Source: a plasmid
Direction: 5' to 3' (one strand)
Assembly: GCF_988243305.1 (NCBI RefSeq)
Contig: NZ_OZ547137.1
DNA: 64,000 bases
Shown here: one piece after another, positions 4,601 through 7,600 of the stretch
Layout: each line of letters begins with the position of its first letter
How positions within the stretch are numbered: the stretch's first letter is position 1
Program-made: the position numbers

Positions 4601-7600
4601 TAGGCCAATATTCACACAATTAACTAATATTTTCTACGCAATACGTGACACCTTTCGAGGAGAGGTGCTCGAAATTTCAGACATAAAAAGCCCCGTAGGG
4701 CCTTAGATGATTTCTTCCAATGCTGATTCCAGTTCTTTTACTTGCATTGCTCTAAGACGAGGAGCTAATGTTCGATGGGCGTTTAAGTAATCAATGGCTC
4801 TTGTTACCAGCTTTCCTCCGCCACAGACAACGAAATAACTCTGATGTTGTGTGTGTTGTGCATCAAGAACTGTGTGGCCTAGCTTCTCTATTGCGGTACC
4901 ACTCACTTCCTGCCATTTAGCCGTTATTTGAACGGTACCGGTATTAGTGAACAACAGGAAGTGGGCTATTTCATTCTTTCCCGCGATCAGACCAGGATAA
5001 CTGACATTTTTTTTAAACGTCATCGGAGCTTCTGAGTTACTTAGCTCAAAGCCTGCCCCAGAAATAATTGCTTCAATATCACGCAGTAATTCTGCTCTGG
5101 ACATACTTTCACCTTATCGTGTTGTATCTTTTTTGATCTTGGGGGGGAGGCAGAATTTTCAAGATGTAGGCGTTTTATTTTATGGTTAATAATCACCGCC
5201 ACTCTTATGGTGAGAGATCGGGATAGGGGCTGATCTCACGATTAGCCTCCTCCCACACCACCGTACATACGGGTCCGTATACGGCAGTTCGGTTATGTTT
5301 ATCGTCGCCTGCCTATAACTCCGGTAGGCCCAGTCTGACGAACAGGCGATTGGGAAGTGCTATGCTCAGTGCCGGACTACAGCTTATCCGCCATTGCTTA
5401 TGGCAACTCCCTACCGTTTGCGCTGCAAGGTCTTTGCTTACTCCCCGTCTGCGCAACTCTTTGAAGCGCTTGCTGCCCGTTTTCCACTGTTTCCACAGGA
5501 CACTTCGCAACCTTCGCCTTATCCACCTGTTCAGATCTCTCATCAGCGTTTGCCACTGGTTCAGTCCATAGTAGCTTTTCCATCCCGTCAGATATCGCTT
5601 TAACGGTTCGATAAGCTGCTCTAGGCTTTTGCCCGTGTTACGCCCCGTCAGTTCTCTTATCCGGGTTTTGAACCGCTTCACCGATTCCGGCAACACCACA
5701 CACCACACCTTTCTGCCCCTCCTGAAGCTGTAACCCAGGAACTTACGCGTCTCCGGAAGCGCTACCGCGCTCTTCTTCGCGTTGAGCTTCAGCTTCAGTT
5801 TCCGGTTCAGCCAGTGCGTCAGCCCCGCCATCATACGGTTGCCTGCCCGTTCACTCTTCACATACACATTACAGTCGTCTGCGTAGCGGGCGAACTTCAG
5901 GCCGCGTTTCTCAAGTTCCTTATCGAAGTCATCCAGCAGCAGATTCGATAACAGTGGCGACAGTGGGCCGCCCTGCGGCGTCCCTTCTGTCACCGGCATT
6001 ACCAGACCCGCTTCCATCACACCTGCATTCAGGTACCCGCGGATAAGTGACAGCACCCGTTTATCCGATACTCGTTTCGCTATCCGGCTCATCAGTACAT
6101 CGTGATTCACCCGATCGAAGAACTTTTCCAGATCGAGGTCAACCCCCCAGCTGTAGCCCGACTCGATGTATTTCTGAGCCTGCTTCACTGCCTGATGCGC
6201 CGAGCGTCCGGGCCGGAACCCGTAGCTGCTGTCGCTGAACGTCGCATCCCACTGTGCCTGCAACACCTGCATCATCGCCTGCTGGATAAAGCGATCCACC
6301 ACCGTCGGGATGCCCAACAGACGTTCGCCGCCGCCGGGCTTCGGGATAGTCACTCTTCTTACAGGGGATGGGCGGTAGCTGCCGGACAGCAGTTGCGCTT
6401 TCAGTTCCGGCCAGTGGTGTCTCAGATAGTCCGGCAGTTCGCTTACGCTCATGCCGTCGGCTCCCGCCGCACCTTTATTGGCCTTCACTCTTTTCAGGGC
6501 ATGCCTGAGGTTGACTGGTTCGCAGATGGCTTCCATCAGCCACGCTGTTGACGATGGACTTTCTCTGGTCGTCGGTGCCTGCACGGTTTCAGCCCCCTGA
6601 GAACCGGCGTCAGGGGCTTCACCCCGTCTTCCTGCATCAGGGTCGCGATACGTTTTCTGCTGCATGACCGTTCAGAACCTCCGCTGATACTCGTCACTCA
6701 TTACCGTTCGGGCCTTCAGACGCGCCTGTCCTACTATGCCCTCTGCTGACTCCTGTCCGCCGGTCAGCGCACCTTACGGTACGCTCAGTTCTGAATACAG
6801 AACGCCAGACAGGCCTCCCGGGGTAAGCTCAGCCGCTTTCACCACACACCTGCCCAATCTACCACCCCGGCTCTTGATGGTTATGGCCTTTGCAATCAAT
6901 GGCTTGCTCCGCCAGCCGGGTAGGCCTCATATCGGATTTCTGTTCGTCAGGTCATGGTTTTGCTCCACGCTTCCTTCAGATCCCGCCTCACGACGGCACC
7001 CTTGCGCTTCACGAGTCCTTCGCCACCATCAGGCTGGACAGGGGACTTTCACCCCCGAGCTGCTGAGCATGCCCGGCACACCATAAAAAAGCCCCCACGG
7101 GCTTTATTACTAAATTCAATACAAACAACAAATTATGCTCTTAACGTACGTTTTCGTTCCATTGGCCCTCAGCCCCCTGGTATTGCTTGCGCCAGAGAAA
7201 TAACTGGCTGGCTGCCACACCGTGTTGCCGGGCAACAAGGGAGGCCGTCATTCCCGGTTCAAAGCTCTGCTGAACAATAGCGCTCTTTTCCTGTGTAGTA
7301 CGCCGTCTGCGTTTCTCCGGTCCTAAGACATCAATCATCTGTTCTCCAATGACTAGTCTAAAAACTAGTATTAAGACTATCACTTATTTAAGTGATATTG
7401 GTTGTCTGGAGATTCTGGGGGCTAGTCTATCTTCAGCTTACGGGCTATCTGACGATGTGACCAGCAGTATGGTGGCAAAGCCATATCAGTCCTTTCTCTT
7501 TGAGTTCACCTAGCATTGTTATCTCCTTAAAAAATTGAGGCGACAACTATGCTGACACAGAGGGTTATTGATCTTACCCAGCAATAGTGGACACGCGGCT

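Follow-up and report, generated by a model that had tools for sequence, protein, structure and literature searches.

A complete class C group II intron behind a terminator-like hairpin at a Tn3-family transposon end on an enteroaggregative Escherichia coli plasmid

The sequence analyzed here is a window of 64,000 nucleotides (nt) from a plasmid of the enteroaggregative Escherichia coli pAA type (NCBI RefSeq assembly GCF_988243305.1, contig NZ_OZ547137.1). Positions 5217 to 7081 of this window hold, on the minus strand, a group II intron of 1,865 nt that encodes a reverse transcriptase (RT). It lies just inside the end of a Tn3-family transposon, behind a hairpin resembling an intrinsic terminator and ahead of a short open reading frame (ORF); no coding sequence is interrupted, since the intron falls between a terminator and the gene that follows. 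The features of the locus, including the exon-binding sites (EBS) of the intron and the intron-binding sites (IBS) in its exons, are as follows, in the order in which the minus strand is read.

7177 to 7140, minus strand: 38-bp terminal inverted repeat of a Tn3-family (ISEc63/Tn1000-like) transposon, GGGGGCTGAGGGCCAATGGAACGAAAACGTACGTTAAG, read directly from the sequence
7105 to 7088, minus strand: intrinsic-terminator-like hairpin AAAGCCC-GTGG-GGGCTTT in the 5' exon, followed by TTTATG, from a terminator scan and folding
7087 to 7082, minus strand: spacer and IBS1, TTTATG, from EBS1/IBS1 covariation over 29 distinct intron/site combinations
7081 to 5217, minus strand: complete class C (IIC) group II intron, with ends set by empty sites and Rfam matches
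6997 to 6711, minus strand: domain I (distal part) to domain III core, from full-length RF02001 and RF01998 matches
6975 to 6971, minus strand: AGGAA of the IIC-specific ε′ bulge, in the context AUCUGAAGGAAGC, from the sequence and the RF02001 alignment
6901 to 6898, minus strand: EBS1, CAUU at intron nt 181-184, within a terminal hairpin loop of domain I, from covariation
6859, minus strand: EBS3, intron nt 223 (G) within GUA[G/A]AU, from covariation with the first 3'-exon base
6665 to 5313, minus strand: intron-encoded RT/maturase of 450 amino acids in domain IV, from Pfam RVT_1 and GIIM
5287 to 5258, minus strand: domain V of 30 nt (distal stem of 3 bp, AU bulge), from folding and an alignment of 11 relatives
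5255 to 5219, minus strand: domain VI with a bulged UA, from folding and compensatory changes in its stem
5216, minus strand: IBS3, the first 3'-exon base (C), which pairs with G223 of EBS3
5104 to 4703, minus strand: downstream ORF of 133 amino acids, PD-(D/E)XK family, from Pfam PF20472 (1.8e-09) and RefSeq annotation of homologous loci

The ends of the intron are defined by comparison with alleles that lack it. Read 5' to 3' on the minus strand, with slashes at the splice sites, the window has ...AAAGCCCGTGGGGGCTTTTTTATG / GTGTGCCGGGCATG ... CCCCTATCCCGAT / CTCTCACC..., and in intron-less alleles ...AAAGCCCGTGGGGGCTTTTTTATG / CTCTCACC... is uninterrupted. A query made of both flanks joined, for which contiguity within one alignment piece was required, found 35 E. 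coli records with contiguous flanks and no intron. Three empty loci were read directly: one (L095) has flanks exactly as in the window, including the inverted-repeat variant and the hairpin, and the other two (L005 and L006) differ by one stem base. The predicted ligated-exon junction is ...UUUUUUAUG / CUCUCACC..., and the boundaries are unambiguous because the last base of the 5' exon (G) differs from the last base of the intron (T). An original prediction, made from the sequence before this analysis, had placed the intron at 5217 to 7105. Its 5217 end, where the intron closes with ...CCCGAT, is retained, as is the GTGTG start (7081 to 7077, minus strand), but 7105 takes in the 5'-exon hairpin. 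The possibility raised at that time, that the 3' boundary or the domain structure might prove incomplete, is not borne out by these results.

All six RNA domains are kept in the window copy, together with the full RT ORF. Rfam models RF02001 (group-II-D1D4-3; 6827-6997, 137.3 bits) and RF01998 (D1D4-1; 6711-6787, 53.7 bits) match over their full lengths, and so does RF00029 for domains V and VI (5217-5289), though only under relaxed thresholds, as its 38.7 bits fall just short of the gathering score (40). The two hairpins expected for domains V and VI are recovered on folding (-31.7 kcal/mol, z = -3.2), with compensatory changes at 13 of 27 pairs and an invariant bulge in the alignment of relatives, where the distal stem of domain V (ACG/CGU) is likewise kept through compensatory changes. 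The bulged A that had been noted in this region is found in the bulged UA of domain VI, where the candidate branch A is position 5224, 7 nt from the 3' end. The segment AUCUGAAGGAAGC around the ε′ AGGAA (6980-6968) is invariant in five relatives, as judged at the level of sequence only.

The encoded protein is recognized by Pfam as RVT_1 (2.8e-42) and GIIM (2e-18) and carries YADD at residue 261, and no endonuclease domain was found by Pfam in its 450 residues, in agreement with what had been described for this ORF. It departs from the ≥90% consensus of 28 full-length relatives at one residue only, M278 in place of V. Comparison with PDB sequences by phmmer gives GsI-IIC RT as the best match (4e-140, 471 bits, residues 43-448), followed by the E. 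rectale IIC RT (1.7e-103) and by R. intestinalis and E. rectale fragments (~1e-82), with the IIA protein LtrA (4.5e-37) and the IIB protein TeI4h (5.9e-34) far behind. The closest relatives measured are in Serratia nevei (86% amino acid identity), Brenneria (74% amino acid identity), Klebsiella plasmids (90% nucleotide identity), and Providencia (80% nucleotide identity).

Exon recognition was examined in 80 loci encoding relatives (44-86% amino acid identity, many phyla), in which intron ends were mapped by profile searches; for introns that start with GTACG instead of GTGYG the 5' ends are less certain and EBS1 scores are weakest. When nt 181-184 are set in register against the last four bases of the 5' exon, the mean number of paired positions across 29 distinct intron/site combinations is 3.24 (of 4), compared with 1.76 ± 0.18 for permuted assignments, and none of 10,000 permutations reaches the observed value. 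Examples of such EBS1/IBS1 pairs in relatives are AAAG/CUUU, UGGG/CCCA, AGUG/CACU, GGUU/AACC, and AUCG/CGAU, and in the window EBS1 CAU pairs with IBS1 AUG (7084-7082) over 3 bp. For IBS3, nt 223 is the best-covarying column (Watson-Crick in 20 of 26 cases, or 24 of 26 with G·U), with G opposite C and A opposite U in relatives; after duplicates were removed, 15 of 10,000 permutations reach the observed value. Both positions agree with the E. rectale intron structure, in which EBS1 is A184-G187 in a terminal loop and EBS3 is A231 (PMC10190682). A different EBS1, CAUAA at nt 197-201, which could form 5 bp with UUAUG and had been aligned to the O. iheyensis AUAA, was rejected because it is invariant among introns with differing 5' exons, whereas nt 181-184 covaries with IBS1. 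One copy was left out of the 3'-end analysis, that of a Klebsiella quasipneumoniae plasmid (L003, 4845-4865; 90% identical), whose sequence diverges from that of the family inside domain VI, after ...GGCTGATCGTGA, and whose 3' end appears truncated or rearranged.

The hairpin in front of the intron, with its T-run, had been pointed out previously, and it is called by a terminator scan and folds with -12.8 kcal/mol (z = -3.0). Its stem ends 6 nt and its T-run 3 nt before the splice site, a stem spacing within the range described for B.h.I1, in which a terminator stem-loop lies 3-11 nt upstream of the splice site (PMC1702495). We regard this hairpin as the stem-loop part of a IIC target. Four related copies at other sites all stand behind a hairpin with a T-rich tail:

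E. coli prophage copy, 98.4% nucleotide identity: 5' flank AAAGGAGCTTCGGCTCCTTTTTTCATG
Copy downstream of E. coli cdiI, 87% nucleotide identity: imperfect hairpin, then TCTTCTTT
Klebsiella plasmid copy, 90% nucleotide identity: 5' flank AAGGGGGCGTCTGCCCCCTTTATCTT
Providencia plasmid copy, 80% nucleotide identity: 5' flank AAGCAGGCGAAAGCCTGCTTTTTTCAT

Over 33 distinct flanks from different phyla, the 45 nt upstream of the intron fold with a mean of -15.7 kcal/mol, against -9.2 in 642 control windows from the same loci (Mann-Whitney p = 6e-9), and the last 12 nt contain a mean of 4.8 T, against 2.7 in the controls. As these flanks fold more strongly and are richer in T than the controls, the association with hairpins characterizes the family as a whole and is not due to chance in the window.

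Three further observations concern such targets. Most intron-less alleles (L005 and L006, ~2570) have GCTC for GCCC in the 5' arm of the hairpin (window 7098), giving U·G for C-G, and a perfect stem is present in the seven occupied copies read and in one empty allele (L095). Within the window, the terminator of the PD-(D/E)XK ORF (4704 to 4687, minus strand), AAGGCCCTACGGGGCTTTTTATG / TCTGA, combines a hairpin with an IBS1 AUG like the occupied target; this near-cognate hairpin, which ends ...TTTTTATG, lies ~400 bp downstream of the intron on the same strand and is unoccupied, its +1 U would make a G·U pair with EBS3, and none of the flank-checked full-length E. coli copies is located at this site. 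Finally, the alphaproteobacterial metagenome-assembled genome (MAG) MFD06742.bin.2.111 contains at least six copies of a related IIC intron (62% amino acid identity; L009-L013, L059). The five whose flanks were read all stand behind one repeated palindrome (...GGCGCGC-loop-GCGCGCCTTTGCCCA /) with a 3' exon starting CCCTAC and an EBS1 UGGG that matches IBS1 CCCA, an arrangement that suggests an intron actively proliferating within a dispersed repeat.

Introns of classes IIA and IIB (ML, CL, and related) have a C-terminal endonuclease domain, 6-bp EBS1 and EBS2 pairings, a 34-nt domain V, and an AGC triad. An intron of this kind with a conventional EBS1/EBS2 target, adjacent to a hairpin by chance, could be imagined from the window by itself, as one hairpin beside one intron could be coincidence. 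It is contradicted by the similarity of the RT to IIC enzymes and its distance from LtrA and TeI4h, by the lack of an endonuclease domain, by the short domain V and the AGGAA motif, by exon recognition through only 3-4 bp plus 1 bp, and by hairpins that recur at ~30 independent sites, and we consider it extremely improbable. IIC ribozymes are described as small, with a domain V whose distal stem is shorter by 2 bp than that of IIA/IIB introns, CGC for AGC, an ε′ bulge carrying AGGAA, EBS3 as in IIB, and an EBS1-IBS1 pairing of 3-4 bp with no EBS2 (PMC1702495). The window intron shares the short distal stem, the 3-4 bp EBS1-IBS1 pairing, and a single EBS3-IBS3 pair, and a stem-loop takes the IBS2 position (hairpin at -24 to -7; the search for an EBS2 loop was not exhaustive). 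The CGC triad is found at the level of the lineage, in ~30 relatives, and not in the window copy, where the triad is UGC; this bears on activity and not on descent, and membership in IIC by homology stands. The class C reading put forward originally is upheld by the RT matches, the ribozyme hallmarks, the short EBS1 with a single EBS3, and the recurrent hairpin targets, and neither a different class nor a conventional IBS/EBS target was found.

Comparison with known systems places the intron within a well-known kind, to which it adds one member; it is not a new kind. It resembles the prototype IIC introns B.h.I1 (Bacillus halodurans), O.i.I1 (Oceanobacillus iheyensis), and the E. rectale intron with MarathonRT in its small ribozyme, short domain V distal stem, CGC-type triad of the lineage, AGGAA ε′, and endonuclease-less RT (PMC1702495, PMC3669008, PMC10190682), and also in a terminal-loop EBS1 near nt 180-187 that engages 3-4 exon bases, a single EBS3 in GUA[G/A]AU, and insertion a few nt 3' of a terminator stem-loop. 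In contrast to these introns of Firmicutes chromosomes, it resides on a gammaproteobacterial plasmid, has UGC for CGC, and has AU instead of AC as its domain V bulge (AU being common to several relatives); compared with GsI-IIC RT, its RT has an N-terminal extension of ~40 amino acids. From the same host order, Enterobacteriales, Di.ze.I1 (Dickeya zeae) and So.gl.I1 (Sodalis glossinidius) are similarly found 3' of Rho-independent terminators, with conserved IBS1 and IBS3 and low copy number, and E. coli and Shigella plasmid fragments ~81-82% similar to Di.ze.I1 have been reported (PMC3522654); the likeness to Di.ze.I1 is drawn from its published description and not from sequence comparison. 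The IIC-attC introns S.ma.I2, E.c.I7, and Kl.pn.I1 share a class C RT and ribozyme and the recognition of a folded DNA stem-loop (PMC3001079), but they insert into integron attC sites, whereas the site of the window intron, behind a hairpin with its T-run, belongs to the end of a Tn3-family transposon, and its neighborhood contains no integron. No published name for it was found in the literature, and E.c.I1-I9 (PMC3522654) do not cover this plasmid copy.

When the intron is placed into the context of other genomes, its history can be traced. A survey of 5,426 complete E. coli genomes found full-length copies at three sites only, and genomes with any match have a median of one matching place and a maximum of two. 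All seven plasmid copies of ≥99% identity that were inspected occupy the same site as in the window, and in six of the seven the RT gene is broken by an internal stop, a frameshift, or a deletion. A search for identical copies behind other terminators, as had been proposed, yielded no second site at ≥99% identity in these 5,426 genomes. Several pAA plasmids, including that of strain 55989, retain only nt 634/637-1865, beside ISEc43. As all seven copies share one site and most have broken RT genes, a single old insertion, carried passively, is the likely origin; the intron appears to have been inherited since then with the transposon and the plasmid, and nothing suggests recent movement. Decay is also visible downstream of cdiI, where the copy L002 has a split RT ORF and nine others are annotated likewise. 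Approximately 200 E. coli chromosomes, including that of UTI89 (L094 1501-1565), carry directly 3' of cdiA/cdiI a 65-nt 5' stub that is 96.9% identical to nt 1-65 and is cut by an IS66 fragment, a remnant of the insertion that is full-length in L002.

A further indication of the state of the window copy comes from the catalytic triad of domain V, which reads UGC at 5286-5284, with U5286 corresponding to intron nt 1796. The first triad position is class-dependent, being A in IIA/IIB and C in IIC. All ~30 relatives read have CGC, and in an alignment of 11 sequences including the window, 10 have a C-G pair here and the window alone has U·G. Since relatives have C at this position, including the orthologous same-site copy on pDEC15A-1 (L091) as well as the 98.4% prophage copy, the change from C to U is a derived one that postdates the insertion. 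In O. iheyensis, the triad C358-G359-C360 makes up a catalytic triple helix in which C358 helps to place the nucleophilic water, and even the conservative change G359A abolishes binding of the catalytic metals (PMC3669008). The window copy is therefore, as far as can be judged from its sequence, more likely to be impaired or dormant than actively mobile, and it is doubtful that it still splices and moves efficiently. The original description of the intron as intact and possibly competent consequently holds for the presence of all domains and the ORF, but competence is put in question by the derived triad U, the single inherited insertion, and the decaying sister copies.

Taken together, the element is very probably an ordinary bacterial class C intron, present through one old insertion carried passively and likely impaired or dormant in this copy. 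Several points weigh against this interpretation. With a U·G wobble the helix of domain V stays paired, and a U at the first triad position might be tolerated. The RT ORF is intact in the window and in four identical plasmid copies, which is unexpected after long neutral decay; the intact copies are 100% identical and hence very recent relatives. IBS1 pairing in the window amounts to only 3 bp, within the IIC range and at its low end, and the intron is assigned to its class by the likeness of its RT to IIC enzymes of solved structure and by ribozyme traits instead of a full phylogeny against the curated intron database.

It could alternatively be proposed that the same IIC intron is fully active, splicing from read-through transcripts and able to retrotranspose to other terminator hairpins. 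The presence of all domains, an RT ORF with one non-consensus residue, a paired domain V, and clearly mobile relatives, as in the alphaproteobacterial MAG with its at least six copies behind a repeated palindrome, would fit such a view. Set against these are a triad U that is unique with respect to ~30 relatives and arose after insertion, the lack of a second site with a ≥99% copy in the E. coli survey, the unoccupied near-cognate hairpin downstream, and the stops and frameshifts in sister copies, so that we regard full activity as unlikely. A more far-reaching version, in which the UGC copy is active and mobile and the lineage uses the terminator inside Tn3-family ends as a safe harbor for spreading between plasmids, seems quite improbable; were it true, the first triad position of IIC introns would tolerate a U·G wobble in nature, and the lineage would spread between plasmids along with the Tn3-family transposon.

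For an old and passively carried insertion, the route of entry can be sketched from the established mechanism of the family. A particle of intron RNA and RT would recognize the DNA stem-loop by its shape and the short single-stranded tail through IBS1 AUG with EBS1 CAU and IBS3 C with EBS3 G. Reverse splicing would take place 6 nt 3' of the stem and be followed by copying into DNA by the RT, for which primers provided by the host are presumed because the RT is without an endonuclease domain. The target would have been the terminator-like hairpin just inside the Tn3-family inverted repeat on a pAA-type plasmid, with insertion having occurred once.

Another conceivable role is connected with the downstream gene. 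The intron lies, as first described, just upstream of the 133-amino-acid ORF and on its strand, with 112 nt between them, and outward promoters are documented in IIC-attC introns of integrons (PMC3001079); it could thus be speculated that the intron was co-opted as a regulator of the PD-(D/E)XK gene, for example by an outward promoter or a block to read-through, effects of a kind proposed for the IIC-attC introns. A promoter scan of 4600-7500 gave no sigma-70-like site, at least 35 E. coli records have the gene but lack the intron, and orthologous intron copies are decaying, all of which makes co-option very unlikely. The PD-(D/E)XK ORF does not belong to the intron but is carried as a passenger by the transposon.

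Beyond annotation, the significance of a dormant class C copy is small. A retroelement of a pAA-type plasmid can now be labeled as a IIC intron, for which the exact ends, EBS1, EBS3, and a candidate branch site are given. Its orthologous copies (intact, point-mutated, frameshifted, and truncated by insertion sequences), together with the many empty sites, provide a tidy natural example of extinction dynamics as described for group II introns in Enterobacteriales (PMC3522654), and the natural C-to-U triad variant offers a ready-made test of tolerance at that position.

The surroundings of the intron are those of a mobile element on a virulence plasmid. The 38-bp repeat GGGGGCTGAGGGCCAATGGAACGAAAACGTACGTTAAG presumably corresponds to the Tn3/Tn1000 inverted-repeat consensus, and the hairpin of the intron lies 34 nt inside it. 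Next to the same transposon end, intron-less loci carry the PD-(D/E)XK gene, then a resolvase and an ISEc63-family transposase, and the gene order of the window matches. An 80-amino-acid ORF resembling an IS66-family TnpA (HTH_Tnp_1; 7141-7383, minus strand) ends in the inverted repeat, and since this IS66-type ORF is cut there, the Tn3-family transposon was inserted into an IS66-type element. Assignment of the plasmid to the pAA type agrees with a record in which aatPABCD lies just upstream of a 100%-identical intron copy and with the window ORF at 9494-10705, which is AatD (403 of 404 aligned positions identical, stop codon included).

Other elements were seen elsewhere in the window. Two IS3-type copies, at 7625-8796 and ~14850-16026 (plus strand), encode identical 288-amino-acid OrfB proteins; the first lies between the intron-bearing transposon end and aatD, and none is found there in the identical plasmid locus L093. 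At 16232-16303 (minus strand), embedded among insertion sequence fragments, is what remains of a second IIC-type intron unlike the first, a lone domain V/VI (RF00029, 47.2 bits) with a CGC triad, a short domain V, and the 3' end ...CCUACUCGAU; no domain I-IV or RT sequence was found near it. Rfam matches on the plus strand also include the Hfq-binding small RNA STnc490 (24893-25017, 140.5 bits) and an ALIL pseudoknot (25916-26014, 81.1 bits), which we take to be an IS3-family frameshift element.

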